Below are positions 8,107-31,981 of a DNA stretch of 32,000 nt, piece by piece; the first letter of the stretch is position 1; every line of letters starts with the position of its first letter. The notes beneath the pieces are model-generated. The model saw nothing but the letters and a program-made list of their open reading frames with translations. It did not search any database and was not told where the DNA came from. A program made the position numbers and the translations under genes. Source of the stretch: Bifidobacterium longum subsp. longum JCM 1217 (lineage in GTDB: Bacteria; Actinomycetota; Actinomycetes; Actinomycetales; Bifidobacteriaceae); NCBI RefSeq assembly GCF_000196555.1, contig NC_015067.1, positions 1,710,001 through 1,742,000 on the forward strand, given 5' to 3'.

Positions 8107-8136
8107 GAGATTGCGATACGTTATGGATGGAGGCGA

Positions 8137-9667: not shown

Positions 9668-9741
9668 ATCCTCCACCTTAACGGCCGGTATTGGCAATCG
9701 GCCGCCATACATACCATTAACCCTCTAGAAAAGGAGCAACG

Positions 9742-10032
9742 ATGCCCCAATATCAGGTAGATTCCGAGCGAATCCAATCATCCTCGGCCGCAGTGGCCAC
9801 TTCGATCTCGCAAATCAGGCAGGCCGTGGGCGGCATGTACACCAATCTCAATGCCTTGCAGGACGCATGGCGAGGTTCGGCGGCCACCCAGTTCACCGCG
9901 GTAGCCGAACAGTGGCGTGCGGCCCAACAGCAGATGGAGGCCTCACTCGAGTCCATCCAACGCTCGCTGACGCAAGCCTCCACCGTGTACGCTGACGCCG
10001 AAATCCAAGCTTCGCGCCTGTTTGCCAGCTAG
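9742..10032 (+). CDS. WXG100-family (ESAT-6/EsxA-like) protein
   Basis: 96 aa. Central W-R-G (tgg at 9868-9870) in the context LQDAWRGSAATQF. C-terminal TVYADAEIQASRLF fits the YxxxD/E export motif. AAAGGAG Shine-Dalgarno at 9730-9736. Confidence 0.88.
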   Translation: MPQYQVDSERIQSSSAAVATSISQIRQAVGGMYTNLNALQDAWRGSAATQFTAVAEQWRAAQQQMEASLESIQRSLTQASTVYADAEIQASRLFAS

Positions 10033-10128: not shown

Positions 10129-11826
<1,698 letters not shown>

Positions 11827-13979: not shown

Positions 13980-15068
13980 GTGGGGGGCATGACTTTGTTC
14001 CCCACGCAACCGAACATACCTTCGCCGACCACCGCCGCACGACCGGTCGCCGTTCCCGCGCCCGGCGTGTCGGCTCCGCTGGGTGCCGATGACGCCAAAC
14101 GCGCACGTATCCTGGCCGACGCCATTCGGGCGAGGTTCGCCCAGACACTGGTGGGTCAGGATAATCTACGCGAATCGCTTATCGTGACCTTGGTGGCCGG
14201 CGGGCATATTCTTATCGAATCCGTGCCGGGCTTGGCCAAGACCACGGCCGCCCAGACGCTCGCCACCTGCGTATCCGGCTCGTTCAAGCGCGTGCAGTGC
14301 ACTCCTGATCTCATGCCATCTGATCTGGTGGGCACGCAGGTCTTCGATTTTGCGTCGCAGAAGTTCACCACGCAGATCGGTCCGATTCACGCCAATTTCG
14401 TACTGCTGGACGAGATCAACCGTTCGAATGCCAAAACCCAGTCCGCCATGCTTGAGGCCATGGCCGAGGGTGCCACGACCATCGGCGGGCAGCGTATCGC
14501 CTTGCCCAAGCCGTTCATGGTGATCGCCACCGAGAATCCGATCGAGGAGGAGGGCACGTTCAACCTGCCCGAAGCCCAGATGGATCGTTTCATGATGAAG
14601 GCCGTCATGACCTATCCTTCGCCCGACGAAGAGGCTCGGATGCTGGCCATGCTCACCCGCCGCGGCTCCGATATGATCGGTCCCGACACCATCACCGGCG
14701 AACGCATTTCCGTGTCCGACGTTGATTTTTTGCGCAAGGCGGCACGCCGCGTGCATGTTTCCGACGCGATCATGCGTTATGCGGTCGATATCACCGCCAC
14801 GTCACGAGGTGCCGGCTCCCGCCCCATCAAGGGACTGTCGTCCTTGGTGCGTTTGGGCGCCTCGCCGCGCGCCACCATCGCCTTGACCCGTATCGGCCAG
14901 GCGAAGGCGTTGCTGTCCGGGCGCGACTATGTGGTACCCGAGGACCTCAAGGCGTTCGCTCATGAGGTGCTGCGCCACCGTATTATGCTGACGTTCGAGG
15001 CACTGGCCGATGGCGTGGTCAGCGATCAGATCGTCGACAAGATCGTCGAAACGGTTCCTGTTCCGTGA
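13980..15068 (+). CDS. MoxR-family AAA+ ATPase
   Basis: Walker A ESVPGLAKTTAAQ, Walker B FVLLDEINRSNAKTQSAMLEAM, and C-terminal ...GASPRATIAL.... Start is GTG 13980 or ATG 13989. Confidence 0.9.
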   Translation: MGGMTLFPTQPNIPSPTTAARPVAVPAPGVSAPLGADDAKRARILADAIRARFAQTLVGQDNLRESLIVTLVAGGHILIESVPGLAKTTAAQTLATCVSGSFKRVQCTPDLMPSDLVGTQVFDFASQKFTTQIGPIHANFVLLDEINRSNAKTQSAMLEAMAEGATTIGGQRIALPKPFMVIATENPIEEEGTFNLPEAQMDRFMMKAVMTYPSPDEEARMLAMLTRRGSDMIGPDTITGERISVSDVDFLRKAARRVHVSDAIMRYAVDITATSRGAGSRPIKGLSSLVRLGASPRATIALTRIGQAKALLSGRDYVVPEDLKAFAHEVLRHRIMLTFEALADGVVSDQIVDKIVETVPVP

Positions 15069-16015
15069 GTTCCGATTCCGTTCGCAAGAAGATCGAGGCC
15101 CTTGGCACTCAGCTGAGCCTGCCTACCGTAAGGAAGGCTTTGGGCGCGCTGGAGGGCGAACACGCATCCGGGCGTCGCGGCGGCAGCGGCGATGCGATGG
15201 ATGTGCATGCCTATGAGCCAGGCGACGAATCCCGTCTTATCGATTGGAAGACCAGCGCCCGCCAAGGCCGCCCCATGGTGGTCGAGCGCGAGCGCCTGTC
15301 GACGTCACGGGTCTGGTTGCTGATGGACGTGGGCCTGGAGATGACTGGCGTATGCCCTTCCGGAGAACGCGCATGGCAGGTTGCCGCCAATGCGCTGCGT
15401 ATGTTCGCCGCACTGTCGTTGCGCCGGTCGGACGATATTTCGCTGGTGTTCGGCGATGAGTCCAGTATCACCCGCGTGCCGTTCAACGGTGGGTTCGCGC
15501 AGTTCGAACGCACGCTGGACAAGGCGCTTGACCGTGATTGGGATCATCACCGTAATATCGACGCGCTGCTGGAATATGCGCGCCGTATCAAGGATCGCGA
15601 GGCATTGATCGTATTGGCCACCGATGAGCATGCGATGGAGGAGCGGCATATCACCACGATCCGTCGTATTACCCGCACCCATCCGATGGTGCTGATCGAT
15701 GTGGCGACGATGAATCCGTTCAAGGCCGTCTCATCCCGCCACGCTCCCACCGACGGCTTGAGTGCACGGCGTGTGCCGGCATTCCTGCGCAACGCCAAGG
15801 CAGCGGCCGAGGTCGATACTCATCGCGCGTATATGGCCGCGGCTTTGGAACAGGAGCTCACCCGTGCCGGTTCCCATATCATTCGATCCGCATCCAGCGA
15901 ATCCATGTTCGATCGTTTCGTCGCCCTGGTGTCCCGGGCATTGGCCCGCACCACACGCAATAGACTGGGTACTGCACCCGAACTGGTCGGACTGACTTTG
16001 GCTGGTGATCTATGA
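15065..16015 (+). CDS. DUF58 domain protein (MoxR-associated)
   Basis: 316 aa. Signature HAYEPGDESRLIDWKTSARQGRPMVVERE. GTG start overlaps the moxR stop (GTGA at 15065-15068). Confidence 0.85.
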   Translation: MSSDSVRKKIEALGTQLSLPTVRKALGALEGEHASGRRGGSGDAMDVHAYEPGDESRLIDWKTSARQGRPMVVERERLSTSRVWLLMDVGLEMTGVCPSGERAWQVAANALRMFAALSLRRSDDISLVFGDESSITRVPFNGGFAQFERTLDKALDRDWDHHRNIDALLEYARRIKDREALIVLATDEHAMEERHITTIRRITRTHPMVLIDVATMNPFKAVSSRHAPTDGLSARRVPAFLRNAKAAAEVDTHRAYMAAALEQELTRAGSHIIRSASSESMFDRFVALVSRALARTTRNRLGTAPELVGLTLAGDL

Positions 16016-16566
16016 TGCACAGCATGTTCCCCATCATCCCGCTCGCCACTGATCCCGGCGATCTCAGGCCCGTGGAGTCGTTGGCCTTGACCACTCCCCT
16101 GGTGGTGGCCATCATCGCATGCCTGTTGCTGGCGGTAGGTCTGATCGCGTTGATCATCATGCTGTCTCGCCCCGCACGCAAACCTCGGAACAGCGACCGC
16201 GCGCGTGGCGCTCATAGCAATGCCAGCTCCAAGGCCGAGTGGCGTGCCCGCATCGACGATGTGGTGGCCCGTCATGAATCCGGAGCACTGCCCCGGCATG
16301 AGGCTTTCGTCGAATTGTCCGTCATCGCCCGTGATTTCGCCGGTGCCGCATCAGGCAAGGAGCTTAGTTCCAGTACGCTGACCGATTTGGCGTACCTGAA
16401 TCGCACGCCCGCGAATCGCCAAGGATTGGACGCATTGAAGCAGACCATTGGCGCGTTGTATCCACCGGAATTTGCCGATGATGCCCGCAACCGAATCGCC
16501 CAGACGACCAGCGTGCAGCAGGCCGCCGAGTGGGTGGCGAATCTGGTGGAAAGGTGGCGTTCATGA
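16012..16566 (+). CDS. Single-pass membrane protein of the MoxR/vWA operon (occupies the DUF4381-like position of Bat-type operons)
   Basis: 184 aa. TM helix LVVAIIACLLLAVGLIALIIML. ATGA overlap with the DUF58 gene at 16012-16015. No recognisable catalytic motif. Confidence 0.6.
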   Translation: MMHSMFPIIPLATDPGDLRPVESLALTTPLVVAIIACLLLAVGLIALIIMLSRPARKPRNSDRARGAHSNASSKAEWRARIDDVVARHESGALPRHEAFVELSVIARDFAGAASGKELSSSTLTDLAYLNRTPANRQGLDALKQTIGALYPPEFADDARNRIAQTTSVQQAAEWVANLVERWRS

Positions 16567-17621
16567 TGCTGGCATGGCATTGGCCTTGGGCCGCTCTGGC
16601 CGGCGTCTTGGCGACGCTGGCGATTATCGTGCTGATTGTCGTGTTCGCCCGCCGTAACGCCGCCGACGACACCCCTGTATTCTCGATGGACGACGATCTC
16701 AATACCGAGCACGCTTCCCGCCTGTTCCGTCAATGGCGCGCTTTGGGCCGTCTCGCCATCAGCGTGCTGGTGCTTGCGCTGGCGCTGGCCATTGTGCTGG
16801 TGGCTCGCCCCAGCCAAGTGGATGCCGGTGACGAACGCGCTTCCAGCCGAGATATCGTCCTGTGTCTGGATGTGTCGGGGTCCACGCTCCCCTATGATCG
16901 CGAGGTCATCGACACCTATTTGGAACTGGTCAAGCATTTCGAGGGGGAACGTATCGGTTTGAGTATCTTCAACTCGACCTCACGCACGGTGTTCCCGCTG
17001 ACCGACGACTACGAACTGGTCACCAAACAGTTGACCTCCGCCAGCAAGGCGCTGAAAGGCGTCGAGTCGCAGGATGACATCGATAAGATGTCCGATGCCG
17101 AATATCAGGACATCGCCAATTGGCTCGAAGGCACGCAGAACCGCAAGGACGCCACCTCCTTGATTGGCGACGGCGTGGTGTCTTGCGCGGCGATGCTCCC
17201 CGGTTTCGCTTATGGCGAAGCCAATCATGCGAATGCCGACCGTCAGCGTGCGGCATCCATCGTGCTGGCCACCGACAACGTCGTGTCGGGCAAGCCCACC
17301 TATTCGCTGACCGAAGCGTTGGATTTGACCCAGCAGACCAAAATCACCGTGGACGGCCTGTATTCCGGGCCGAAAGCCAGTGAATCGGACCAAACCACAA
17401 CGGATATGAAGTCCGCGATCGAGTCGCATGGAGGCATCTTCCTCACCCAATCGAATGGCGCGTCGATAGATGAGCTGGTACGGGATATTCAGTCGCGTAG
17501 AGATACGGATGTGGAGAACAAGGCGAAATCCTCGATGGTGGACGCTCCCGGTCTGTGGACGCTTGCTCTGGCCGTGATACTCATTATCTGGATCGTATGT
17601 GCATGGAGGTTGAGGCGATGA
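16563..17621 (+). CDS. vWA-domain membrane protein (BatA-like), N- and C-terminal TM helices
   Basis: MIDAS motif in IVLCLDVSGSTLPYD. ATG 16563 overlaps the preceding stop (ATGA). The ORF-track start at 16530 is less likely. Confidence 0.8.
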   Translation: MMLAWHWPWAALAGVLATLAIIVLIVVFARRNAADDTPVFSMDDDLNTEHASRLFRQWRALGRLAISVLVLALALAIVLVARPSQVDAGDERASSRDIVLCLDVSGSTLPYDREVIDTYLELVKHFEGERIGLSIFNSTSRTVFPLTDDYELVTKQLTSASKALKGVESQDDIDKMSDAEYQDIANWLEGTQNRKDATSLIGDGVVSCAAMLPGFAYGEANHANADRQRAASIVLATDNVVSGKPTYSLTEALDLTQQTKITVDGLYSGPKASESDQTTTDMKSAIESHGGIFLTQSNGASIDELVRDIQSRRDTDVENKAKSSMVDAPGLWTLALAVILIIWIVCAWRLRR

Positions 17622-18649
17622 ACGGATTCACCTTCTCCCCCGCCTTGGGCTGGGTCGCCGGCGGACTGCTGGCGGCCGGGCTCGCCGTACTGGCCATTCT
17701 CGAAATCGCATTATTTGTTCGTCGCCGTGCTTCCAGTGACGAGACCGTGTGGGCTTGCATACGACGTACGCTTATGCTGCTCATCGTCGCGGTGATGGTA
17801 CTGACTCCCAGCGTGGTATCGTCTACCACCTCACAGGCCATCAATGCCACCGACGTCATCGTGGCGGTGGATACCACCGGGTCGATGGCGGTGGCCGATG
17901 CCACATACGGGTCCGAGAAGACCATTACCCGCATCGATGCCGCACGTCAGGCCGTGCATGATGTGACCGCCGCTTATCCGGACGCCAGTTTCGCGGCGTT
18001 ACGGTTCGGTGCTTCGGGAACGCTTGATGTGCCGCTGACCCCGGATGCGCCGGCCATCGATAATTGGGCCAACACGTTGGCGGTGGAAGCCACATCCGTG
18101 TCAGCGGGCTCCAGTCTGGATGCTCCGATCGATCAATTGCTGCTGACCGCGAAGTCGATTCGTGAAGCGCACCCGGATGATGCGATTGTGCTGTACCTCA
18201 TCACTGACGGCGAACAGACCTCGAATGTGACGCGTCGTACGTTCTCGTCACTGCGCCAGTATCTCAATGATGGGTTTACCGTGGGCGTCGGCTCGACCGA
18301 GGGCGGCAAGATTCCCGTCATCGCCGATGGCGTCAGTGCCGGCGATTCCAACACCACGGACCACTGGGTGGTCGACCCGGATACCGGCGAACCCGGCATC
18401 TCCAAGATGGATGAGAAGAACCTTAAAGACATTGCCGACGAGATCAGTGGCACGTATGTGGCCGTGAACGCTTCACAGACTTTGGCGGATTCGGTTTCGG
18501 CCAAGTCATCGAAGCAGTGGCGCATGACCACCACGGTCAAGGAGCGCACACGCACCACGCCGGTGGTATGGCCGCTGGCCATTGCGTTGGCGATATTGCT
18601 TGCCATGGAAGTCGGTGCATGGATCGCAACCTCAAGGAGACTGCTGTGA
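17618..18649 (+). CDS. Second vWA-domain membrane protein (BatB-like)
   Basis: MIDAS variant in VIVAVDTTGSMAVAD. Two N-terminal TM helices and one C-terminal TM helix. ATG 17618 overlaps the preceding stop (ATGA at 17618-17621). Confidence 0.8.
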   Translation: MNGFTFSPALGWVAGGLLAAGLAVLAILEIALFVRRRASSDETVWACIRRTLMLLIVAVMVLTPSVVSSTTSQAINATDVIVAVDTTGSMAVADATYGSEKTITRIDAARQAVHDVTAAYPDASFAALRFGASGTLDVPLTPDAPAIDNWANTLAVEATSVSAGSSLDAPIDQLLLTAKSIREAHPDDAIVLYLITDGEQTSNVTRRTFSSLRQYLNDGFTVGVGSTEGGKIPVIADGVSAGDSNTTDHWVVDPDTGEPGISKMDEKNLKDIADEISGTYVAVNASQTLADSVSAKSSKQWRMTTTVKERTRTTPVVWPLAIALAILLAMEVGAWIATSRRLL

Positions 18650-19248
18650 GAAACAGTAACGAAATCCACGAGAACGATGGCTCGGCGAATACTCGGATGC
18701 GGGCGAAGTGCCCGCTTTGGACACGTATCGTCCTGGCTTGTGGCGCCGTATTGCTGTTGCTGGTTGCCGGCGTGGCGGCAGTAAACCTGTCCGCTTCGAT
18801 TACGTTCAATCAGGCCACCGCATCATTGAACGCCAATATCAAAGCGGCTCAGGACGAGTCCACGGATATCACCACGCTCAAGGCGCAACAGCAGCAGACC
18901 GATGCGCAATTCGCCGAGGCCGGGCGAATGCGCACGCTTCTGTTGCCGCAAGTCAAGGACGCCATCGACGCCAATGCTTCGATTTCTTCCGAGCTGACAA
19001 AGATCACCCTGAAACAGGCCGAGGCGCAGAACAGCGGTTCCGATTCCGGGCAAGCCCAGTCGGCACAGCAATCCGAGAGTTCCTCATCCAATGCCAAAAA
19101 GGGCGGCGCGTTGACCGACGAACAGAAGAAGCAGGTCGAGGAGCTGATGAAGGCCAATCAGCAATCCACCGATACCCAGTCGAACACCACCCAATCCGAG
19201 CAGAAAGCGACGCAGAACAAGGGTACCGGGGCCACCAAGCCGTGGTAA
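18646..19248 (+). CDS. Single-pass membrane protein with a coiled-coil, Gln/Ser-rich ectodomain (last gene of the MoxR/vWA operon)
   Basis: GTG 18646 overlaps the preceding TGA (GTGA) and follows an AAGGAGA Shine-Dalgarno at 18634-18640. TM helix IVLACGAVLLLLVAGVAAV. Q-rich, low-complexity tail. The ORF-track start at 18517 lies inside the previous gene. Confidence 0.6.
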   Translation: MRNSNEIHENDGSANTRMRAKCPLWTRIVLACGAVLLLLVAGVAAVNLSASITFNQATASLNANIKAAQDESTDITTLKAQQQQTDAQFAEAGRMRTLLLPQVKDAIDANASISSELTKITLKQAEAQNSGSDSGQAQSAQQSESSSSNAKKGGALTDEQKKQVEELMKANQQSTDTQSNTTQSEQKATQNKGTGATKPW

Positions 19249-19490: not shown

Positions 19491-19838
19491 ATGAGTCCTG
19501 TCCTTTTAGCTGGATATATGAATACCTACACCAGCAACCCAGCACCCATCGATCCCACCGGCGGCTTTGCCGACAATACGGTGACGCCGTTCGATTACGG
19601 CACTTGCCCTTGCCATGCGGCGGTACAGCGTAGTCGCGACCTCGTGTCCGTCCAGCGTGCGGCCACACTGGCGCAATCGGACCAGACGGCGGTGGCCGTG
19701 AACCGCTCCAGCAACATCGTGTGGACCGGTAAAGCCGCCGATCTATTCCGATCGCGGCTCAGTCGCACCGCACAGTATTCGGCCAGTCTCGCGCAAGACA
19801 TGGAGACCACCCACCGATTGGCTTGGGGGTCATCATGA
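19491..19838 (+). CDS. Small WXG-like helical protein, translationally coupled to the downstream hydrolase
   Basis: 115 aa (alternative ATG at 19518, where codon GC3 rises). W-T-G at 19722-19730 in the context NIVWTGKAADLFRSRLSRTAQY. Its TGA overlaps the next ATG (ATGA at 19835-19838). Confidence 0.6.
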   Translation: MSPVLLAGYMNTYTSNPAPIDPTGGFADNTVTPFDYGTCPCHAAVQRSRDLVSVQRAATLAQSDQTAVAVNRSSNIVWTGKAADLFRSRLSRTAQYSASLAQDMETTHRLAWGSS

Positions 19839-21439
19839 GCGAGCACGATTACTGGCAAGTGGAATCGTCCGTTTACGGCGGAGTGGGATATGCGCCAGCC
19901 ACTCTTGAAGAATATGTCGTCATAGCCAAGGCTCTCGATGACGAGGCGGCAGGATTTGCGGCCATAGCCACGGCTTGGGAATCGGCCGCATTACAGTTGC
20001 AGTCACATCGGCATAGTGCGCCGATGTGCGTCACCTTGCAGTCGGGCGATCCGAGCGCCGTTGTTCCCGGCCATGTCACTGCACCATATGCCGCGCTGGG
20101 CAATCGGTGTTATGACCATGCAACGGCATGTCAGCGGTTGAGCGATGATCTGCGTGGCGCGGCCGATCTGCTGATTCGCGCACACTCTCTGTATTCTCAG
20201 GCGGAGATGACGGCTCGGCGCATGTTTACCGAATTATTGCAGGCCGGCACACAGGCCAAACCGGGATATGCCGCGGTGGGTGTTGCCGCTGTGGCGGCGG
20301 GCGGCTTTCTGGCCGGCTGGACTATTGACGGCAAACCGAATTCGGCATGGATGTCCACGTTCACCTATCCGTTCCAGGAAGGAGTGCTTAGCGGCGCGGG
20401 CGGAATCATTGGCGGCGTACCTATCGGCAAGAGCATTGCGCACACCGATGAGGTCAACAAGGCTGCGGGGAAAATCGCCAATTTCTCCGGCCCGGCGAAA
20501 GACGTCGTCCAAGGCAATCATCTGGACGTGCGCGAGGTGCAGGCGAATGCCGACGTCGTCCGCGCAAGCGGATCGGTGGCCGAGTCAATGGAGAATCTGC
20601 GCAGGCTCGCCGAAGAGCGGCTCGGCAAAATCGAGCTGAACAGCGGACTCGAATATGGGACCATCGCCATTCAACGCTATGAACGATCTGATGGAACCAA
20701 CTCCTGGCTGGTCACCATCCCGGGTACCGATGGACAGCCTGACTCACCATTTGGCTGGGCGCAGAACGTGGAACTGATGAGCGCCGATCAGGAGCGCCGC
20801 AGGAAAGCGGACAGCGCTCGCATGGTTGCCGAGGCGATGCGTCAGGCAGGCATCGGCAAGGATGAGCCCGTGGCGCTGATCGGCCATTCCCAGGGTGGTA
20901 TCGTTGCCGCCACGCTTGCCTCGGATTGGGCGGAGGAATATACCATCGAGCATGTGGTGACAGCCGGATCGCCGGTGGCCAATCATCCGATTCCGCAACG
21001 CACGTGGGTCACCAGCGTGGAAATCGATGATGAACTGGTCGCCGCACTGGATGGTGCCGCCAACCCGGTCACCGATAACTGGCTCACCGTACAAGGGCAT
21101 GTATCGCCCGCGCCCGCGGCAACACCATCCACAGTGCATTCGGACGGCTCATGCACTCCCGGCGCAACGCCCATCACCGGCCTGACCCCATATGACGCCG
21201 CACCCGTGGCTGGTTCGACCAACGGCAGGGAGTTGTCGCACTGGATCAAATACCATCAGGCCGCCTATCAGAACGCCACCGACCTCGGCTCCCCCGCCGT
21301 GCAACGCCACGAAGCCCATTTCCAGGAAGTTATCAACGGAGAGCTCAAGGAAACCCGCTACTACCAAGGCCGCATGACCCAGTCCGCGACCATTGCCCCT
21401 AGCGAGCGAACCACCGAGTTCAGCACGTTCGGCGGTTAA
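19835..21439 (+). CDS. WXG100-like N-terminal domain, hydrophobic linker and alpha/beta-hydrolase (lipase/esterase-like) protein
   Basis: 534 aa from ATG 19835. N-terminus has ATAWESAALQL and HSLYSQAEMTARRMF (YxxxE). Hydrophobic stretch YAAVGVAAVAAGGFLAGW. WLVTIPGTDG strand and nucleophile elbow ALIGHSQGG (20882-20899). Confidence 0.75.
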   Translation: MSEHDYWQVESSVYGGVGYAPATLEEYVVIAKALDDEAAGFAAIATAWESAALQLQSHRHSAPMCVTLQSGDPSAVVPGHVTAPYAALGNRCYDHATACQRLSDDLRGAADLLIRAHSLYSQAEMTARRMFTELLQAGTQAKPGYAAVGVAAVAAGGFLAGWTIDGKPNSAWMSTFTYPFQEGVLSGAGGIIGGVPIGKSIAHTDEVNKAAGKIANFSGPAKDVVQGNHLDVREVQANADVVRASGSVAESMENLRRLAEERLGKIELNSGLEYGTIAIQRYERSDGTNSWLVTIPGTDGQPDSPFGWAQNVELMSADQERRRKADSARMVAEAMRQAGIGKDEPVALIGHSQGGIVAATLASDWAEEYTIEHVVTAGSPVANHPIPQRTWVTSVEIDDELVAALDGAANPVTDNWLTVQGHVSPAPAATPSTVHSDGSCTPGATPITGLTPYDAAPVAGSTNGRELSHWIKYHQAAYQNATDLGSPAVQRHEAHFQEVINGELKETRYYQGRMTQSATIAPSERTTEFSTFGG

Positions 21440-21489: not shown

Positions 21490-21709
21490 ATGACGAGTAG
21501 GAGATGGCTCATCAAACTGATGAAGCAAGCGGCAGAACGCAAGAATGTCACGTTTGAAAGTATCAGGCAAGGAGGGAGTCATGAGATATTCCAACTCGAC
21601 GGACTTATGATTCCCCATCCCACGACATAACGAAATCGACAACAACCTCGCGGACATTATTTGCAAAGAAGCAGAAGCCAAACTCGGGAAAGGCTGGTAT
21701 CAGCAGTGA
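21490..21709 (+). pseudogene. hicA: HicA-family toxin gene disrupted by a +1 frameshift
   Basis: ATG 21490 (AAGGAG at 21473-21478) encodes MTSRRWLIKLMKQAAERKNVTFESIRQGGSHEIFQLDGLMIPHPTT, then a stop at 21628-21630. The +1 frame continues PRHNEIDNNLADIICKEAEAKLGKGWYQQ to the TGA at 21707-21709. Removing one C from the CCCC run at 21613-21616 restores a 72-aa HicA with the conserved IPxPRHxEI block. Confidence 0.75.
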
Positions 21710-22071
21710 AAACATATCAGGTCATCGTTCGCCCTGGCGAAAAATACTGGATTCTTGAGATTCCCGGTATCGGTTTCACGCAGGCAAGAACAACAGCAGA
21801 GATTGAAAGTATGGCACGCGACCTTATCACCGTCATGACACAAGATGCTGATTTCGCACTCACCGTAGAGACAAAGCTGCCGCAATCCGTGCAGGAGCAT
21901 CTTGATGAAGCTCGGCGACTGCGCAAGGAAGAAGCGGAATGCAGATCGAACGCAGCGCGGGAAACTCGCGCCGCGGCACAAGAACTACATGGCATGGGTC
22001 TCGCCCTACAGCAAATAGGCGATATACTCGGGGTCTCACGGCAACGGGCACATCAACTTGTCAATGCTTAG
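21706..22071 (+). CDS. hicB: HicB-family antitoxin with a C-terminal helix-turn-helix
   Basis: GTG 21706 overlaps the restored hicA stop (GTGA). VKTYQVIVRPGEKYWILEIPGIGFTQARTTAEIESMARDLI matches a HicB N-terminal fold. C-terminal HTH LQQIGDILGVSRQRAHQLV. Confidence 0.8.
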   Translation: MKTYQVIVRPGEKYWILEIPGIGFTQARTTAEIESMARDLITVMTQDADFALTVETKLPQSVQEHLDEARRLRKEEAECRSNAARETRAAAQELHGMGLALQQIGDILGVSRQRAHQLVNA

Positions 22072-22848: not shown

Positions 22849-22980
22849 GGTGATCTCCTAGCCTTAAAGGCCGCACACAGTAATCGAACCACGGGCGTTC
22901 CTTGACCTGTGCGGCTCGGGCGGGAACGCCGCACCACAGTATAGCCGCTCGGTTCACGGCTGGAAGTACCCTTGGAGGTT

Positions 22981-24417
22981 ATGAAGCTTACCGATATTTC
23001 CCCCGCAATCGCATTGACCCCACTCGACGGCCGTTATCACAAGGCCACCGCCCCGCTCGTCGAATACATGAGCGAACCTGCCCTGAACCGCGAACGCATG
23101 CGTGTCGAAGTCGAATGGATGATTCTTCTGGCCAACGGCTTTGAGGGCAACGGCAACCAGCCGATCGTTGACGGCGTCAAGCCGTTCACTGCCGAAGAGC
23201 AGGCCTTCCTGCGCGCCATTCCCGAGGACTTCGGCGCCGAAGGCATCAAGCAGCACGCCGCTCATGAGGCCATCACCCACCACGATGTGAAGGCCGTGGA
23301 GTACTACATCGATGATCAGATCGACAAGGCTCCGGCCGAGCTGACCAACATCAACGACGAGCTGAAGACCCTCGTGCACTTCGCCTGCACGTCCGAAGAC
23401 ATCAACAACCTCTCCATCGCCCGTTGCGTCAAGAACGCGATGGAAAACGTGTGGACCCCGGAGTTCAAGCGCATCATCGACCACCTCGCCGGCAAGGCCG
23501 AGGAATTCAAGGATATGCCGCTGCTCTCTCTCACCCACGGCCAGCCGGCCACGCCGACCACACTCGGCAAGGAGCTCGCCGTCTACGTCTACCGTCTGAA
23601 CCGTCAGCTCAAGCACATCGAAAACCAGGAGTACTTGGGCAAGATCAACGGCGCGACCGGCACGTTCGGCGCCCACCTGGCCGCATGCCCGGATGTCGAC
23701 TGGGTCGCCGTCTCCCGCGAATTCGTCACCAACCGCATGGGCCTGACCTGGAACCCGCTGACCACGCAGATCGAAAGCCACGACTGGCAGGCCGAGCTGT
23801 ACTCCACCGTCTCCCACGCCAACCGCATCATGCACAACCTGTGTGTGGACGTGTGGATGTACATCTCCCGTGGAGTGTTCGCCCAGGTGCCGGTCAAGGG
23901 TGCCACTGGTTCCTCCACCATGCCGCACAAGGTCAACCCGATTCGTTTCGAGAACGCCGAAGCCAACTTCGAAATCAGCTGCTCGCTGCTCGACACCCTC
24001 TCCGCCACGCTGGTGGAATCCCGTTGGCAGCGCGATCTGACCGATTCGACCACCCAGCGCAACATCGGTTCCGCGCTCGGCTACTCCTTGCTCGCCCTGA
24101 CCAACCTCATGGGCGGCCTTGAGTCCATCCACCCGAACACCCACGTCATCGAGCGTGAGCTTGATGAGAACTGGGAGGTGCTTGGCGAGCCGATCCAAAC
24201 CGCCATGCGCGCCTGCGAGCTCAAGGGCCTGCCGGGCATGGACAAGCCGTACGAGAAGGTCAAGGAGCTTATGCGCGGCCACACCATCAACAAGGAACAG
24301 GTCGAGCAGTTCATCGACCAGCAGTCCTTCGACCCGGAAACCGCCGCTCGCTTGAAGGCTCTGACCCCCGCCACCTACACCGGTGTGGCCAGCCAGCTCG
24401 TCGCTTTCGACCGCTGA
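22981..24417 (+). CDS. purB: Adenylosuccinate lyase
   Basis: MKLTDISPAIALTPLDGRYH..., with fumarate-lyase signature GSSTMPHKVNPIRFENAEAN. ATG 22981 is preceded by a GGAGG Shine-Dalgarno. The ORF-track TTG at 22972 is less likely. Confidence 0.95.
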   Translation: MKLTDISPAIALTPLDGRYHKATAPLVEYMSEPALNRERMRVEVEWMILLANGFEGNGNQPIVDGVKPFTAEEQAFLRAIPEDFGAEGIKQHAAHEAITHHDVKAVEYYIDDQIDKAPAELTNINDELKTLVHFACTSEDINNLSIARCVKNAMENVWTPEFKRIIDHLAGKAEEFKDMPLLSLTHGQPATPTTLGKELAVYVYRLNRQLKHIENQEYLGKINGATGTFGAHLAACPDVDWVAVSREFVTNRMGLTWNPLTTQIESHDWQAELYSTVSHANRIMHNLCVDVWMYISRGVFAQVPVKGATGSSTMPHKVNPIRFENAEANFEISCSLLDTLSATLVESRWQRDLTDSTTQRNIGSALGYSLLALTNLMGGLESIHPNTHVIERELDENWEVLGEPIQTAMRACELKGLPGMDKPYEKVKELMRGHTINKEQVEQFIDQQSFDPETAARLKALTPATYTGVASQLVAFDR

Positions 24418-24539
24418 AATAGGTGCGATGCGAGTCCCTCGAGCCCCTCGAATCCCTCGCATCCACCACACTACTGCGCTGAGTCACAAACCGAACCGCA
24501 AACTGAACCGAACAAGGACAGGCGTCAGGTAACCATTTC

Positions 24540-27101
24540 ATGACTACTGAACAGGATCAGTCCACTACGGAAGATCGCCCGAACAAGGCGACCTCCTCCA
24601 CTACCGACCGGCCGATCGCCTCTGGTGACGGCCGGTCGGCCAGTTTTGCTGTCAGCGGACCGGACAGCCCGGCAACCGACGACAGCAACGATTCCGGACC
24701 GTACATCGACGACATCGCTCCGCGCCGCACGCGCGACTTCGGCGATCTGACCCGGGCCGGTCTGTCGCTGTTGATGGCCGCCGTGGTCATGGTGTTCGCC
24801 GTGTATCTGGGCGGCATGACGCGCGGCGTCGAATCCGACGCACACACCGCAGCCCAGGTCATCAACTGGTTGGCTGACTTCCCCTCCACCGTGCTGACGC
24901 AGCTGGCCACCACGGTCATCGTAGTTATCGTGCTCGCTCAGTTGCTCTTGGCCCGCGAATGGCTGCAAGCTGCGGTGTCCGCGCTGGCCATGTTTGCCGG
25001 ATACGGCATGGTGTGGGTCATATCGACGGCAATCAGCAGTCTGAACGATTTCACCCTGCCAATGGCACTGGTCTCAGCCGCCACCTCATACGGCTCCGGG
25101 CTGTTGCCCGACATCTACGCCGGCATGGCGTCCTTCCTGACCGCCGCCGGGCCACGCCGTACCCGCTCCACGGTCAAATGGAGTTGGAATATCCTGTATG
25201 CCATCGCCGCGGTGATGGTGGTGCTTTCGTGGCATTCGGTTACCGGCATGCTGGTTTCGATGGCCGCCGGTCGCACGGTGGGCATGCTTATCCGATTCGT
25301 GGTCGGCACGCAGAATAAAGGCGTGTGGGGCAAAGATCTCGTCGCAGTGCTCTCAAGCATCGGATTAGAGACCACCTCACTCATCCGGCATCAGGAGCCC
25401 GGAATCAGCCATGGCTCATTGTCTGCCACGTTGGATGACGATTTGACGGAAGGCTCGCGCATCTACGATGTGGAGACCGCGAATAACCGTCGTTTTATCG
25501 TTTCCGTCATCGACGCGCAAACCCATACCGTCGGCTATCTGAAGCAACTCTGGGATTGGGTGCGTTTTACCAGCGTGTCCATTCGACGCGATCGTTCCGT
25601 GCGCGACGCCGTTCAGCATCACTTTGCCATGCTGCTCGGCCTGCACAATATCAAACTGCCCGCGCCCTCCCCATACGGCATCGCCGATACGGACGAGTCC
25701 GCGATTCTGGTGCTGGATGCGCACACCATCGAGTTGCCCGCCAACCTGAACACGCTTACCAAGGCGGATGCCGTAGCGTATATGCGATATCTGTCCGTGG
25801 CAAATCGCCGTGGATATACGCACCGACGCATCACGCCTGATACGCTCGCCCGGCTCGAAGATGGCACTGCGGTTATCGCCGGCTGGCTGAATGGCGACAG
25901 CGCTTCCGGCCCGGCCAATACCGCACTTGACAAGGTTCAGCTACTCGCGTTGTTCGCCGCACTGATCGGCGTGAAACCGGCAGTCGCGGCCGCCCGCGAA
26001 GCTTGGGGAGACACGACGTTGACCACGTTGGCCCCGTTCATTCAGAAAGTCGCGGTCCCCTCCCCCACACGCGCATTGGGCACGTGGGACAAGCAGCTGC
26101 TCAAGGAACTGCGAGACCACATCAACACCATAATCGATGAGGAGACCGCCGAATCCGCCGAGCCGGTGACGCTGGCCCGCTTCTCTTGGCGTTCGATGAT
26201 CACCATGCTGCTGGTCATCGTGGCCGTGGTCGTGGTCTTCACCCAACTGAAGCCCGAGGAGATCATCACCGCGCTGACCAACGCCAACCCGTTGATGGCG
26301 GTGGTGACGCTCGCGTTCGGTGTCTGCGGCTGGATCGGCTCGTCGATTTCGCTCGGTTCCCTGATGGCGCGGCACAAGCGTGACAATATGGGCGTCTTCA
26401 TGAGCCAGGTGGCAGGCGGCTTCGCCACCGTATCCATGCCAGCCGGCGTGGGCCCCTCGTTCGTCAACCTGCAGTTCCTGCGCAAATCCGGCTATCGCAA
26501 CACCCAGGCGACCGCAATTATGAGCGCCGCGCTCGTGGTGTATTACGCCGTGTACTTCTCCATGCTGGTCATCATCGGCCTGTTCACCGGCCGCAACATG
26601 TTCTCCGGCGCAATCCCGACAAACACGTTGGTTATCGTGCTGGGCGTTGTGGTCGTGGTGCTGTCCATTGCGATGATGATTCCGCCGTTGCGCCACTGGG
26701 TGACCCGTCGTCTTATGCCGCTGGCCAAGACGTATATCAACCAGCTGCTGGACGTGCTTTCCCAGCCCCGACAGCTCACAGTCAGCTGCCTAGGCGCGCT
26801 GTTCCAGAACGCGACCACTGGGCTCGCTTTCTGGGCGGCCCTGCAAGCGTTCGGCTATTCATCGAATCCGATTGAAACGACGTTCGTCTTCCTGCTGGCC
26901 TATGCATTGGGTTCCGCAGTGCCCACTCCAGGCGGTCTGGGCGGTGTGGAAGCGGCGCTGACATTCGCGTTCGTGGCGGTCGGAGTGCCGCAGGGCGTGG
27001 CGCTTTCCGCCACTTTGCTGCACCGCGTGGTGTTCTACTGGCTGCGCATTCCGCTGGGCGCGGCGGCCATGAAGTGGCTTGACAAGCATAATCTTGTCTG
27101 A
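24540..27101 (+). CDS. Large polytopic membrane protein with a C-terminal UPF0104/LPG-synthase-TM (MprF flippase-like) domain
   Basis: 853 aa. N-terminal multi-TM block, a central ~300-aa soluble region, and C-terminal TM bundle ending in PTPGGLGGVEAALTFAFVAVGVPQGVALSATLLHRVVFYWL, typical of the UPF0104 family. Confidence 0.75.
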   Translation: MTTEQDQSTTEDRPNKATSSTTDRPIASGDGRSASFAVSGPDSPATDDSNDSGPYIDDIAPRRTRDFGDLTRAGLSLLMAAVVMVFAVYLGGMTRGVESDAHTAAQVINWLADFPSTVLTQLATTVIVVIVLAQLLLAREWLQAAVSALAMFAGYGMVWVISTAISSLNDFTLPMALVSAATSYGSGLLPDIYAGMASFLTAAGPRRTRSTVKWSWNILYAIAAVMVVLSWHSVTGMLVSMAAGRTVGMLIRFVVGTQNKGVWGKDLVAVLSSIGLETTSLIRHQEPGISHGSLSATLDDDLTEGSRIYDVETANNRRFIVSVIDAQTHTVGYLKQLWDWVRFTSVSIRRDRSVRDAVQHHFAMLLGLHNIKLPAPSPYGIADTDESAILVLDAHTIELPANLNTLTKADAVAYMRYLSVANRRGYTHRRITPDTLARLEDGTAVIAGWLNGDSASGPANTALDKVQLLALFAALIGVKPAVAAAREAWGDTTLTTLAPFIQKVAVPSPTRALGTWDKQLLKELRDHINTIIDEETAESAEPVTLARFSWRSMITMLLVIVAVVVVFTQLKPEEIITALTNANPLMAVVTLAFGVCGWIGSSISLGSLMARHKRDNMGVFMSQVAGGFATVSMPAGVGPSFVNLQFLRKSGYRNTQATAIMSAALVVYYAVYFSMLVIIGLFTGRNMFSGAIPTNTLVIVLGVVVVVLSIAMMIPPLRHWVTRRLMPLAKTYINQLLDVLSQPRQLTVSCLGALFQNATTGLAFWAALQAFGYSSNPIETTFVFLLAYALGSAVPTPGGLGGVEAALTFAFVAVGVPQGVALSATLLHRVVFYWLRIPLGAAAMKWLDKHNLV

Positions 27102-27643: not shown

Positions 27644-29107
27644 CTAGTTCAGCGCTTCCATAAGCTGCTCGAATCCCAGGGTGGGCTCGGCCTCGAAGGG
27701 ATCGAGGAGTATGGCTTCCCGGCGTTCGGGGGCGGTCAGGGTCAGGTGGGTCCAGTCGGCGGAGAACTGGGCTCCGACGTTCAGGGCCGCGTCCACGAAC
27801 CGGCCACGCAGGGCGGCACGGGTGTCGGTCGGCGGATTGTGCACGGCGTATTCCACGTTGTCTCCTGTCAGCAGCTCACGCATCTGGTTGCGGGCTACGA
27901 GCGAACCGTACAGGCGACCGTTGGCGATGTCGTGGTAGTCGAGCTCAAGCTGTTCCATCTGAGCGAAGGTGACGTCCGGGCGACGGCGTTTGAGCGCGTC
28001 GAACAGACGCTTCTTGGCGGCCCAGTCCACGCGGTCGGCGAGCGCATCGTATGCACCACGCTCCAGCGCGTCCAGAACGCGGCTCCACTCCCCCATAATC
28101 GTGTCGATCGTGGTGGCCGGCAGCGAACTTGCCAGCGCATCGCCATGGGTTTCGATGAAGGCCTTGACCGCCGCATAATACCGGCGCTGCAGACCCAGTG
28201 CGGACACGGATTCGCCTGATTCGAGCGTCAGTTCGGCGCGCGGATTGTCAAGGAATCGACTGACCGTGCGATTGGCGGCAGCCGGATCAGCAAAGGCATA
28301 CTGCTCGAATCCGGACGGAACGCCATGGCGGAAGGCGTCTTCGATCGCGCACAGCACAAGGTGCGTGACGGCAAGCTTCATCCATGTGGACCATTGCGAA
28401 CGGTTCGAGTCGCCGATGATCACATGCAGCCGGCGGAAGGAGTCGGGGTCGGCGTGCGGTTCGTCGCGCGTGTTGACCATCGGGCGGGAGCGGGTGGTGG
28501 CCGAGGAGACGGCCTCGTCCAGGAAGTCCGCGCGCTGGGTGATCTGGAAGCCGTCCGGGGTCATGCGGCCGGCACCGGTGTACAGCTGGCGGGTGATGAG
28601 GAACGGCAGCAGCTGGTGTTCGATGGTCTCCAACGGCACGAAGCGGCGGACCAGGTAGTTTTCGTGGCAGCCGAAGGCGTGGCCGGCGGAGTCGACGTTG
28701 TTTTTGAACACATGGATCGTGGCGTGTGCGCCGTAGGATTCGCGCAGCTTGCGCTGGGCCTTCAGGGCTAGGTTGCGCATCACGTGTTCGCCGGCGAGGT
28801 CCTGGGCCAGGGCCTCGCGCGGATCGCGCGCTTCGGCGGTGGCGTATTCGGGGTGGGATCCGACGTCCAGATACAGACGTGAGCCATTGGCCAGATACGT
28901 GTTGGTGGAGCGGGAACGGGAGACGATGGGCTGGAACATGGTCATCGCCACCTGGCCGGCGTCCACGGGGCGTTCGGCACCGGTGACCGCCACGCCGTAT
29001 TCGGTTTCGACGCCGAAAATACGGCAGAACCCGTCCATCTCGGCGGATGGTACGGGTTCCGTGGCGTGCAGGGAGCGGGTGCCGCTGTCACGCAGTTGGG
29101 GCATCAC
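27644..29107 (-). CDS. pafA: Pup-protein ligase PafA
   Basis: [11 protein letters not shown]..., [62 protein letters not shown], and it lacks the Dop loop. GTG 29107 and ATG 29104 overlap the pup stop (GTGATGA). An alternative internal start is ATG 29038 (MDGFCRIFG...). Confidence 0.93.
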
Positions 29108-30313: not shown

Positions 30314-31981
30314 CTATCGTTCGGCGTTGATGGCCAGCGACTTCAGCAGATCGATGGCGTGTTCGGCCGAATTGAGTTCGGTTTCGCAGCGCGCCTTGGT
30401 GAAGGCGAGCGGATCGGAGATGTCGAGGGAGAACAGGTGATGGTCGGTAGCGGCCATATGGCCGGCATTGCCGTAGAATTCGACAGCCTCGCCCTCGTCT
30501 GCGGCGCGCGGGTCGCGAACAGTGAGTCGGGACCAGCTGGCGGCGGCCACCTCATCGCCGAATTGCGCCACGAGTTTTGCCCTGAGCCAGGCGCGGGTGT
30601 CTTCCGGCGGTTCGGTAGTGGCGCGTGCGATGTCGGCGGCGCTCACCACCCGTTCGGTGCGGGGTTCGAGTTTGGTGAAGATGCTGTCCGCGGGGTCGAG
30701 CGCCGCCCATTTCAGGTCGATGACCTTCAGTCGCGGGTCGTTCCAGCCATTGGCCACGCTGGGCGCAGCTGCCGCGGTGATTTTGCGGCGCAGTTTTTCG
30801 AGCAGCTGCCATTTGAGCAGCCATTCGATGCGGCTGGCCTCGCCGGTCATGGCCAGACGTTCGTCATCGCCGGCGGTGTGACGGATGGAGGCGCAGTCGA
30901 TGAGCGCCTGCTGCCACATCGCCATGATGGATGTGGTGGATTTGTCCGGCCAGGCGGGCTCGCCGGCGGTGTCGGTGCCTTCGACCAGTGCGGCGACCTG
31001 GTAGACGGCTTGGCGCAGTTTGAGCTGGATAAGCCATGCGTTGGTTTCGCCGCCGTTGGCCAGCGGCAGGCTTGCGCCCAGCGTCAGGTCGTGGGAGACG
31101 GTGTGCATGGCTTCGACTGGGTCAGACAGTTCGAGTTCGTCGAGGAAGGCGTTCAGATCGAATCCGGCTTCGTCCGCGTGTTCGAGCAGCCACAGCAGCA
31201 TGCTCGTGGTGCCGAGTTTCAGGGCCTGCGGTACCTCCATACGGTTGGCGTCGCCGACGATGACGTGCAGGCGGCGGTATTCGTCGGTGGAGTGGGATTC
31301 GTCGCGCGTGTTGATAATCGGGCGTTCGAAGGTGGTTTGCAGGCCGACTTTGACGTGGATGTAGTCGGCGCGCTGGCTGAGCTGATAGCCGGGGATTTCG
31401 CTGTTCTCGCCGATTCCTACGCGGCCGGAGCCGGCGTAGATCTGGCGGGTGACGAAGTGGAGGGTCATCAGGCGCGTGACTAGGTCAAATGGCACTGAGC
31501 GGGCCATCATATAGTTCTCGTGCGCGCCCCAGCAGGAGCCCTTGCCGTCCACATTGTTGCGATGCAGGGCGATGGGGGCGCCGGTCTGTGTGCGGGCGCG
31601 TTCGGTGGCGGCCTGCATGATGAGGTCTCCGGCACGGTCATAGCGGGCCGCTTCGAACGGGTCGGTGGTTTCCGGTGCCGAGTATTCGGGATGGGCGTGG
31701 TCCACGTAGACGCGGCCACCGTTGGGGGCGATCACGTTGGTGATGTTGAGTTGTGGGGCGTCGGTGAGCATGTCCGGTCGGGCGGCGGCACGTTCGAGTC
31801 GGGTGCCGCGCGCGTCGTTGACCGGGTCCTCCTGCCGGTAGTCCCAGCGGATGGATTTGCTGTGGCTGTCCGCGGCGCCGTTCACCACGTCGAAGGACAG
31901 TTGCACCGGGTTGTAGCGGTCCGGGGTGTTCAGGGATACCGCGTATTCGGTTTCGGTGCCCATCACTCGTTTGACGGTCAT
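30314..31981 (-). CDS. dop: Pup deamidase/depupylase Dop
   Basis: 555 aa. MGTETEYAV, the Dop-specific loop ...IRWDYRQEDPVNDARG..., VYVDHAHPEYSAPE, NNVDGKGSCWGAHENYMM, and INTRDESHSTDEYRRLHVIVGDAN. AAGGAG Shine-Dalgarno just upstream. Confidence 0.93.
   Translation of the reverse strand: MTVKRVMGTETEYAVSLNTPDRYNPVQLSFDVVNGAADSHSKSIRWDYRQEDPVNDARGTRLERAAARPDMLTDAPQLNITNVIAPNGGRVYVDHAHPEYSAPETTDPFEAARYDRAGDLIMQAATERARTQTGAPIALHRNNVDGKGSCWGAHENYMMARSVPFDLVTRLMTLHFVTRQIYAGSGRVGIGENSEIPGYQLSQRADYIHVKVGLQTTFERPIINTRDESHSTDEYRRLHVIVGDANRMEVPQALKLGTTSMLLWLLEHADEAGFDLNAFLDELELSDPVEAMHTVSHDLTLGASLPLANGGETNAWLIQLKLRQAVYQVAALVEGTDTAGEPAWPDKSTTSIMAMWQQALIDCASIRHTAGDDERLAMTGEASRIEWLLKWQLLEKLRRKITAAAAPSVANGWNDPRLKVIDLKWAALDPADSIFTKLEPRTERVVSAADIARATTEPPEDTRAWLRAKLVAQFGDEVAAASWSRLTVRDPRAADEGEAVEFYGNAGHMAATDHHLFSLDISDPLAFTKARCETELNSAEHAIDLLKSLAINAER

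Follow-up and report, generated by a model that had tools for sequence, protein, structure and literature searches.

WXG100 (Esx) proteins and the bipartite signal formed by a WxG turn and a YxxxD/E motif are treated as markers of type VII secretion. In EsxA/EsxB (ESAT-6/CFP-10) as well as in PE-PPE pairs, the WxG turn of one partner lies beside the YxxxD/E motif of the other, and in the ESX-5 system of mycobacteria the lipase LipY carries such a YxxxD/E helical module fused to its alpha/beta-hydrolase domain while a partner contributes the WxG. An all-helical partner that binds a lipase and is encoded beside the lipase gene is also known in the form of the Lif foldase. In the LXG toxins with their Lap partners and in TslA, a reverse-domain lipase accompanied by TlaA1/2, all of which belong to the T7SSb branch of type VII secretion systems (T7SS), small helical proteins encoded alongside complete a helical targeting domain (PMC11217815). 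Here, we describe a pair of genes in a stretch of 32,000 nt from Bifidobacterium longum subsp. longum JCM 1217 (contig NC_015067.1, positions 1,710,001 to 1,742,000; hereafter "the window", to which all coordinates refer) that links a small, apparently Esx-like protein to a larger one in which a helical N-terminal domain is fused to a lipase-like serine hydrolase.

Our best explanation, to which we give about an even chance of being right, is that the pair forms a vertically inherited, Bifidobacteriaceae-wide two-gene module encoding a housekeeping two-subunit serine hydrolase with an Esx-type bundle that works intracellularly or at the inner membrane face. The original prediction, made from the sequence alone, had read the same genes as a type VII effector module, and this reading is partly supported: the Esx-like nature of the pair holds at the level of the protein clan, while its portrayal as an accessory module does not.

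The gene pair and its two products

The large gene (19835..21439, plus strand) is defined by its open reading frame (ORF) and an AlphaFold2 model, and its product of 534 aa matches BAJ67126.1 from B. longum subsp. longum JCM 1217 exactly. The small gene lies directly upstream on the same strand, with a longest ORF of 115 aa from 19491; because orthologues begin at M10, we place the start there (19518), so that the gene probably spans 19518..19838 and encodes 106 aa, 99% identical to a "hypothetical protein" of B. longum. Its stop codon overlaps the start codon of the hydrolase gene in an ATGA read directly in the sequence (19835..19838), which implies translational coupling of the two genes. 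Across a survey of 80 related loci with +/-6 kb of flanking sequence, ca. 78 of them full loci, a homologue of the small ORF sits directly 5' of the hydrolase gene and ends at its start in 75, though the Gardnerella version is shorter (about 62-92 aa). Stop and start overlap in 57 of these 75 loci (51 by 4 nt and 6 by 1 nt) and are separated by a gap of at most 23 nt in the others, so that the tight coupling once proposed from the ATGA alone is seen throughout and implies translational coupling across the whole family. All positions originally assigned to the two ORFs, the ATGA overlap, the W-T-G, W48, Y120 and GHSQGG proved correct. A scan with Rfam detected no RNA element in the 269 nt upstream of the small gene or elsewhere in the window, and PADLOC found no similarity to defence systems.

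The small protein evolves quickly, with a mean column identity of 14% in an alignment of 70 orthologues, and the only invariant columns are W69-x-G71-x-A73 (106-aa numbering), represented in the window by the W-T-G at 19722..19730. This confirms the reading of that tripeptide as a WXG100-type motif (70/70 orthologues), and it appears to sit between two helix-length segments of ca. 33 residues each. An additional N-terminal extension of 40 residues carries a C-P-C-H motif (19605..19616) whose CxC is nearly invariant, located ca. 37 residues N-terminal of W-x-G-x-A, with C30 and C32 (same numbering) kept in at least 90% of the 70 orthologues. When these were scanned one by one against Pfam, 21 matched WXG100 (PF06013) at E <= 1 (best E 9.1e-5), followed by PPE (5 orthologues), EspA_EspE (4), WXG100_2 (3) and T7SS_signal (3), and no unrelated helical family recurred in more than two. 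The window's own small protein has no match to PF06013 or TIGR03930 and stays below the curated family threshold. Searches of the Protein Data Bank (PDB) with profiles of the small and the large protein returned nothing significant, and the top match of the small-protein profile was 4lws_A (E 0.12, aligned on the WxG), which is deposited as "uncharacterized protein" and which we take to be an Esx protein of Thermomonospora curvata; the ESAT-6-like MAB_3112/3113 and Staphylococcus aureus EsxA followed among further sub-threshold matches. Aligned by hhalign with the WXG100 proteins of bifidobacteria, the small protein falls into register on the WxG and helix 2 (P 3.6e-4, probability 37%), and the same comparison with the hairpin of the large protein indicated no paralogy (probability 1.3%). 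The recurrent Pfam matches, the top-ranking profile match to 4lws and the hhalign result support the view that the small protein is a divergent member of the WXG100 clan, with a relatedness that holds at clan level and lies below the curated family cut-off.

For the large protein, AlphaFold2 run on an alignment of 88 orthologues gave a confident model (pLDDT 92.3, pTM 0.89) that opens with a beta-strand (residues 6-15; 19850..19879) with the invariant G15 and G16. A 36-residue antiparallel helical hairpin follows (helices 21-59 and 85-116; 19895..20182), with Cys65 and His80 in the joining loop, and is succeeded by a kink at 117-120, helices 121-141, 143-165, 171-193 and 206-226, and an alpha/beta domain at 229-515. 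When residues 1-228 were modelled alone, the hairpin (24-59/85-116) remained at pLDDT >90, residues 1-19 became disordered (pLDDT < 50) and the last helices were less confident. Since residues 1-228 hold no other strand, the strand at 6-15 can, according to the model, find its partner only in the C-terminal domain, from which we predict that N-terminus and enzyme share one compartment as a single compact body. This integration into the hydrolase body speaks against a detachable N-terminal targeting domain, and with it against the effector reading.

Helix 2 of the hairpin has Y-S-Q-A-E at its distal end (20192..20206, placed by alignment and hhalign), where Y120 is present in 88/88 orthologues and position 124 is Glu or Asp in 88/88, so that the YxxxD/E proposed for this protein is invariant. 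In a profile-profile comparison with hhalign, LLIRAHSLYSQAEMTARRMF fell opposite LTQASTVYADAEIQASRLF at the C-terminal end of the WXG100 profile (34 columns, P 7.1e-5, probability 63%), which pairs YSQAE with the YADAE of the genus's WXG100 protein and reproduces the pattern Y-x-x-A-E-x-x-A-x-R-x-F that had been noticed between the two sequences. Within helices that otherwise evolve quickly, only the motif residues are invariant, and the two proteins together present the sequence pattern of type VII substrates, with YxxxD/E after a helix-turn-helix on the large protein and WxG on its small partner. Of the earlier description of the first ca. 135 residues as a second WXG100-type hairpin, the confident hairpin ending in YxxxD/E stands, whereas ATAWESAAL is not a WxG turn: Trp48 (19976-19978; conserved in 81/88) is part of helix 21-59 and none of the 88 sequences has Gly at position 50, and we rejected it as a "second WXG". 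Pfam scans of 73 N-terminal sequences gave weak recurrent matches to T7SS_ESX_EspC (13/73) and WXG100_2 (2/73) and none to LXG (PF04740) or PE (PF00934) at E <= 1. The structural similarity to WXG100 hairpins expected of this region did not reach significance, with a best Foldseek E of 1.4 for the 1-228 model and no significant match to Esx structures. WXG100 structures (3zbh, 3gwk/3gvm, 3o9o and 2vrz) turn up repeatedly in the Foldseek results (target-normalised TM-scores 0.39-0.55), all at E > 1 and interspersed with hairpins of CorA, chemoreceptors and BAR domains, so that the predicted fold is compatible with Esx and not diagnostic.

Between hairpin and enzyme, the model places two Ala/Gly-rich helices (143-165 and 171-193; 20261..20413), of which the first is weakly hydrophobic on the Kyte-Doolittle scale and the second contains a conserved QEG (181-183). 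They may form a membrane-peripheral, dipping hairpin or be buried as core helices.

The alpha/beta-hydrolase domain (residues 229-515; 20519..21379) matches PGAP1 (PF07819; 28.7 bits, cut-off 24.3) and, just above its cut-off, Abhydrolase_6 (26.4 versus 26.3) in the window's own protein. Among the 88 orthologues, all match PGAP1 and 77 match Abhydrolase_8, always around the nucleophile elbow G-H-S-Q-G-G (20882..20899), which is invariant in the alignment and modelled between strand 345-351 and helix 353-364, as had been anticipated when the protein was first described as a hydrolase with this motif. Alongside the nucleophile Ser352, E400, D406 and H469 are invariant (88 sequences each); Asp406 (21050-21052) and His469 (21239-21241) follow the expected strands of the model and are our candidates for the acid and base of the triad. 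Searched with Foldseek against the PDB, the full model reached a best E of 0.057, with the minimal lipases Lip_vut1 and Bacillus subtilis LipA on top, and Foldseek and sequence searches gave weak local matches to Burkholderia and Chromobacterium lipases with the same GHSQGG. Neither a Sec nor a Tat signal was found in the hydrolase. The large protein is thus in all likelihood catalytically active as a serine esterase or lipase.

Several lines of sequence comparison bear on whether the two proteins interact. Pairwise distances between orthologues of the small protein follow those of the hairpin most closely (r 0.70), and once the distances of MoxR, DUF58 and VWA2, three proteins of the upstream gene cluster, are regressed out, the partial r is 0.51 for the hairpin, 0.32 for the middle helices and 0.23 for the hydrolase domain; the middle helices evolve as fast as the hairpin, yet their partial correlation with the small protein is lower. 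The small protein and the hairpin also partly co-diverge with DUF6466, the product of the gene next upstream (partial r 0.35-0.39). Moreover, 7/7 loci without the CxC of the small protein also lack Cys65 of the large one and 6/7 lack His80, though this joint loss amounts to only about two independent events, one in the Gardnerella clade and one in the clade of loci L051 and L058. The elements lost jointly, in Gardnerella as well as in B. criceti/B. anseris loci, are the C-P-C-H motif and Cys65/His80 (20027-20029 and 20072-20074), and they may constitute an inter-subunit metal or redox site.

We propose that the hairpin is the docking surface for the small protein, which would pack onto it in antiparallel orientation and thereby complete an Esx-type four-helix bundle. 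By analogy with antiparallel Esx-type dimers, we infer that the WxG turn of the small protein would come to adjoin Tyr120, and its Cys-x-Cys(-His) extension would lie near the Cys65/His80 loop, possibly with a shared metal site. Such a bundle would serve a housekeeping lipase or esterase as an obligate handle that stabilises or regulates it, rather than being the detachable targeting domain of a polymorphic toxin. The hydrolase itself would work inside the cell or at the inner membrane face, perhaps docked via helices 143-193, and its substrate would be an envelope lipid or ester in the neighbourhood of the MoxR-DUF58-BatA/BatB-DUF6466 membrane proteins and an MprF-like flippase-domain protein.

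Distribution and genomic setting

The pair is present in all of the ca. 80 sampled Bifidobacteriaceae species, and the family includes all sampled Bifidobacterium, Gardnerella, Bombiscardovia and Galliscardovia as well as Scardovia and Alloscardovia. Upstream of it, also on the plus strand, lie genes for a MoxR AAA+ protein, a DUF58 protein, a protein with a single transmembrane (TM) helix, BatA-like and BatB-like VWA proteins and DUF6466 (13980..19248; assigned with Pfam and NCBIfam), which we describe as context of unproven functional coupling. The order MoxR-DUF58-single-TM-BatA-like-BatB-like-DUF6466-small gene-hydrolase is the same in all ca. 78 full loci from at least four genera, and the DUF6466 family is itself confined to this lineage. 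The genes overlap within the MoxR cluster, and 269 nt separate DUF6466 from the small gene. A UDG gene upstream and the genes for a 505-aa protein and the MprF-like protein downstream are as syntenic as the MoxR cluster. Instead of the variation in presence or absence that an effector module would show across relatives, the pair thus has a universal distribution and fixed synteny.

The N-terminal domain is just as tightly bound to its enzyme. A profile of the N-terminal 150 residues, run against 1.84 billion representative proteins, recovered 81 clusters only, and nearly all of these are proteins of 470-570 aa with the domain at residues 1-150, or fragments of such proteins. The most distant named clusters are esterase/PGAP1-like proteins of Scardovia and Alloscardovia, and the sole differing architectures are two repeat proteins that matched in multiple short stretches. 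As 81 clusters hold essentially one architecture, the domain is, by this sequence survey, not a shuffled targeting module. No immunity-like gene adjoins the pair, either in the window or within 6 kb to each side of it in the 80 loci. With a pair that is universal and part of a syntenic core, a domain that is never recombined and no immunity gene, the proposed likeness to accessory LXG/TslA effector modules is not upheld.

The next gene 3' of the hydrolase in most species is the convergent, conserved gene of the 505-aa protein, followed by that of the MprF-like flippase-domain protein. In the window, the 505-aa protein is encoded at 22954-24471 (minus strand), has no Pfam or NCBIfam match and is divergent from the gene at 24540-27101 (plus strand), whose product of 853 aa has an MprF-like flippase / LPG_synthase_TM domain in its C-terminal 300 residues. 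Between the hydrolase gene and these usual neighbours, the stretch at 21490-22071 looks like a toxin-antitoxin-like insertion, with a 46-aa ORF that weakly matches HicA_toxin (21490-21630, plus strand; E 0.007) and a 136-aa protein with a Sigma70_r4-like C-terminal helix-turn-helix (21661-22071, plus strand; E 0.0018) that has homologues in only 3/80 loci. Farther downstream, two genes of the Pup-ligase family (PafA/Dop-like) lie at 27644-29107 and 30314-31981 (both minus strand), and no proteasome genes were seen in the window. Among the surveyed loci, four contigs titled Dysosmobacter segnis (L022), Anaerovoracaceae bacterium (L023), Senegalimassilia sp. (L024) and "bacterium" (L030) carry a whole Bifidobacterium-type locus from UDG to MprF-like gene, near-identical to one another and ca. 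53% identical to the query; these are probably Bifidobacterium contigs that ended up in the wrong metagenome-assembled genomes through mis-binning.

Many annotations omit the small gene or leave it without a name and describe the large one simply as "alpha/beta hydrolase", and the module is therefore invisible to surveys based on annotation.

Secretion substrate or housekeeping enzyme

Direct statements on type VII secretion in these bacteria are scarce: the literature on type VII systems in B. longum and Gardnerella, on DUF1023 and on bifidobacterial MoxR proteins yielded them in two papers only (PMC4965825 and PMC11217815). Kelly et al. compared three calf isolates, B. choerinum AGR2158, B. 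longum subsp. suis AGR2137 and B. pseudolongum AGR2145, described a type VII/WXG100 cluster as unique to the first of them and called it the first report in the genus, with a similar cluster in B. dentium Bd1 (PMC4965825). Garrett et al. assigned the T7SSd type to Actinomycetota including some Bifidobacterium (PMC11217815). Both B. longum and B. pseudolongum carry the gene pair described here; because type VII loci are sporadic and the pair is universal, the latter cannot generally depend on the former. Consistent with the earlier impression that neither an immunity-like gene nor a secretion ATPase is visible, no FtsK/SpoIIIE ATPase was found in the window or among the genes mapped in the flanks of the 80 loci.

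The window also contains a bona fide WXG100 gene at 9742..10032 (plus strand), recognised as such from the start and readily matched by PF06013 (E 1.1e-18) and TIGR03930 (E 4.8e-17). It is convergent with groEL (10129-11802, minus strand), and this groEL-adjacent WXG100 gene is near-universal in the genus, with orthologues 74-99% identical across many Bifidobacterium species; such conservation is unusually strong for an Esx protein and makes it an orphan core WXG100 where type VII loci are sporadic. In B. longum GT15, the gene is reported to be induced 31-fold in stationary phase (PMC9415070). On its other side, it is divergent from a gene for a 283-aa membrane protein with a TPM-phosphatase domain (8861-9712, minus strand), which in turn lies beside an MtrAB-like two-component system (6115-8913).

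Against this background, the pair might be a genuine type VII or type VII-like substrate whose WxG and YxxxD/E form a composite signal, with an EccC/EssC-type ATPase encoded elsewhere that exports the folded lipase. The invariance of WxG in the small protein and of YxxxD/E in the large one would fit, as would the alignment of the motif region with the tail of the genus's true WXG100 protein (P 7.1e-5), the WXG100, PPE, EspA_EspE and T7SS_signal matches of the small protein and the EspC and WXG100_2 matches of the hairpin; furthermore, a WXG100 gene of 74-99% identity is universal in the genus, T7SSd is known in some Bifidobacterium (PMC11217815), and the enzyme is of a lipase type that is often extracellular and yet has no Sec signal. 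We nevertheless think export of this kind unlikely, given that no ATPase or other type VII component is found in the window or within +/-6 kb in 80 species, that clusters were reported for B. choerinum and B. dentium and not for the B. longum and B. pseudolongum strains (PMC4965825), that the N-terminal domain is integrated into the enzyme and never shuffled onto other domains, and that Foldseek matches to Esx structures are non-significant. At the opposite end, the resemblance to Esx proteins could be superficial, with generic Ala-rich hairpins and convergent or coincidental WxG and YxxxE matches, as one might read from the absent Pfam WXG100 match of the window's small protein, PDB profile matches at E >= 0.12, hhalign probabilities of only 37% and 63% and the mixed Foldseek results. 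Such coincidence is the least probable of all alternatives and hardly credible to us, as 21/70 orthologues match the curated WXG100 family (best E 9e-5) with type VII- and Esx-named families next in line, the motif residues alone are invariant in fast-evolving helices, and the two motifs match two separate parts of the WXG100 profile, each in register.

Two further alternatives concern the membrane and the upstream genes. If residues 146-164 spanned the membrane, the Esx-like hairpin and its partner would be cytoplasmic and the hydrolase would face outward as an anchored ecto-lipase; this uncharged segment of ca. 20 residues is fixed in position, free of charges in 74/88 orthologues and flanked by Pro143 and a charged D/E-G-K/R motif, and the adjacent genes code for membrane proteins. 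However, its best 19-mer scores only 1.74 on the Kyte-Doolittle scale (mean of the 88 orthologues 1.46, with 28/88 reaching 1.6), as opposed to 2.2-3.6 for the TM helices of the neighbouring genes, the predicted pairing of strand 6-15 with the C-terminal domain puts both ends into the same compartment, and a pTM of 0.89 indicates one globular body. Because of this weak hydrophobicity and strand pairing, a spanning topology is unlikely in light of the model; we decided against a true TM helix at 146-164 as our main model and see little chance for an ecto-lipase. Somewhat less improbable, though still rather doubtful, is that the pair is the terminal output of the MoxR-DUF58-BatA/BatB-DUF6466 genes, with the AAA+ and VWA proteins assembling, inserting or activating the hydrolase and all eight genes forming one unit, a view that overlaps with the housekeeping reading. 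The invariant order in ca. 78 loci of at least four genera, the common strand of all eight genes, the lineage restriction of DUF6466 and its partial co-divergence with the small protein and the hairpin (partial r 0.35-0.39) point in this direction, against which stand the 269-nt gap before the small gene compared to overlapping genes inside the cluster and the equal synteny of unrelated flanking genes, so that adjacency may mean only a stable chromosome. MoxR-DUF58-VWA clusters are known in other bacteria, such as Bacteroides (Bat) and mycobacteria (MoxR1), and the fact that we know of no lipase partner for any of them counts against this coupling as well.

The housekeeping reading has its own weak points. 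Strict conservation of WxG and YxxxD/E could reflect recognition by an export ATPase and not a purely structural role, and a conserved receptor shared by the C-terminal motifs of the orphan WXG100 protein and the hydrolase is, from the sequences, a real possibility. That B. longum lacks a type VII ATPase is taken from statements in the literature and not from a genome search, and the heterodimer of small and large protein is what we infer by analogy. General synteny is high in this region and makes adjacency weak evidence, and the link to the MoxR cluster, the localisation and the substrate have likewise been deduced. We therefore also entertain the idea that an Esx/WXG100 signal pair is used here without a canonical type VII locus, be it by a cryptic, family-wide receptor or export route that reads the shared Y-x-x-A-E-x-x-A-x-R-x-F tail or with the Esx bundle domesticated as obligate intracellular subunit of a membrane-lipid hydrolase acting together with MoxR-BatA/BatB; we see this as a possibility to be taken seriously, though not one that we would expect to hold.

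What is at stake is that a core gene pair strictly conserves the two halves of the signal in a bacterial family for which reports of type VII loci are sporadic. Were the pair exported, bifidobacteria and Gardnerella would possess a hitherto unrecognised route by which a lipase reaches the interface with host or microbiota. If it is not, the Esx fold would be the subunit of a housekeeping enzyme, and WXG-like genes would as such be no evidence of type VII secretion. A cryptic receptor or a domesticated bundle would each mean that major gut and vaginal commensals put to a new use a fold which has until now been linked to type VII secretion.

Comparison with known systems

EsxA/EsxB resembles the bifidobacterial pair in its adjacent, co-expressed genes, in the WxG at the bend of one partner and the YxxxD/E closing helix 2 of the other, and in Ala-rich helices of ca. 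35 residues, and the profile matches of our pair are in register with true WXG100 proteins. The YxxxD/E partner described here is, however, not a protein of ca. 100 aa and instead runs 410 residues further into an enzyme of which its N-terminal strand is a part, while the small partner bears the 40-residue, Cys-containing extension; moreover, no EccC/EssC gene is linked and Pfam gathering thresholds are not reached. Closer in architecture is the PE-lipase LipY, where a YxxxD/E helical N-terminus is likewise fused to a hydrolase and the WxG is supplied by a partner. Yet the large protein has no PE or PPE match in Pfam (NCBIfam LipY and Pfam PE match only the window's true WXG100 protein, weakly), its hydrolase is PGAP1/Abhydrolase_8-like and not an HSL-family lipase, its helical module is integrated in the enzyme rather than linked and cleaved off, and unlike the PE/PPE substrates of ESX-5 it belongs to a group of bacteria mostly without reported type VII loci.

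With the LXG toxins and TslA, the pair has in common a lipase or toxin whose helical domain is matched by a small helical partner encoded alongside. Those antibacterial toxins are polymorphic, vary between strains and are encoded next to their immunity genes, at T7SS loci or close to them, whereas the bifidobacterial pair is universal, syntenic and non-modular and comes without an immunity gene or any LXG signal in Pfam. The family I.1/I.2 lipases of Burkholderia and Pseudomonas share the GHSQGG elbow and weak local Foldseek and sequence matches, and in the Lif-dependent lipases the lipase gene likewise adjoins the gene of a helical partner; but these lipases are exported via Sec and the type II secretion system (T2SS), their foldase is anchored in the membrane, and the small protein has no detectable homology to Lif, from which it also differs in gene order and sizes. 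The best structural matches of the catalytic domain are the minimal lipases B. subtilis LipA and Lip_vut1 (target-normalised TM-score ca. 0.4), though only at E 0.06-0.4 and over ca. 160 residues, and the bifidobacterial protein adds to such a core a helical N-terminal region of 228 residues and a variable insertion at 427-465. Taken together, an Esx partner with a lipase fused to a helical domain is an arrangement of a known kind, but in the Bifidobacteriaceae it is new in spanning the whole family, in being non-modular and in its apparent independence of any linked secretion system.

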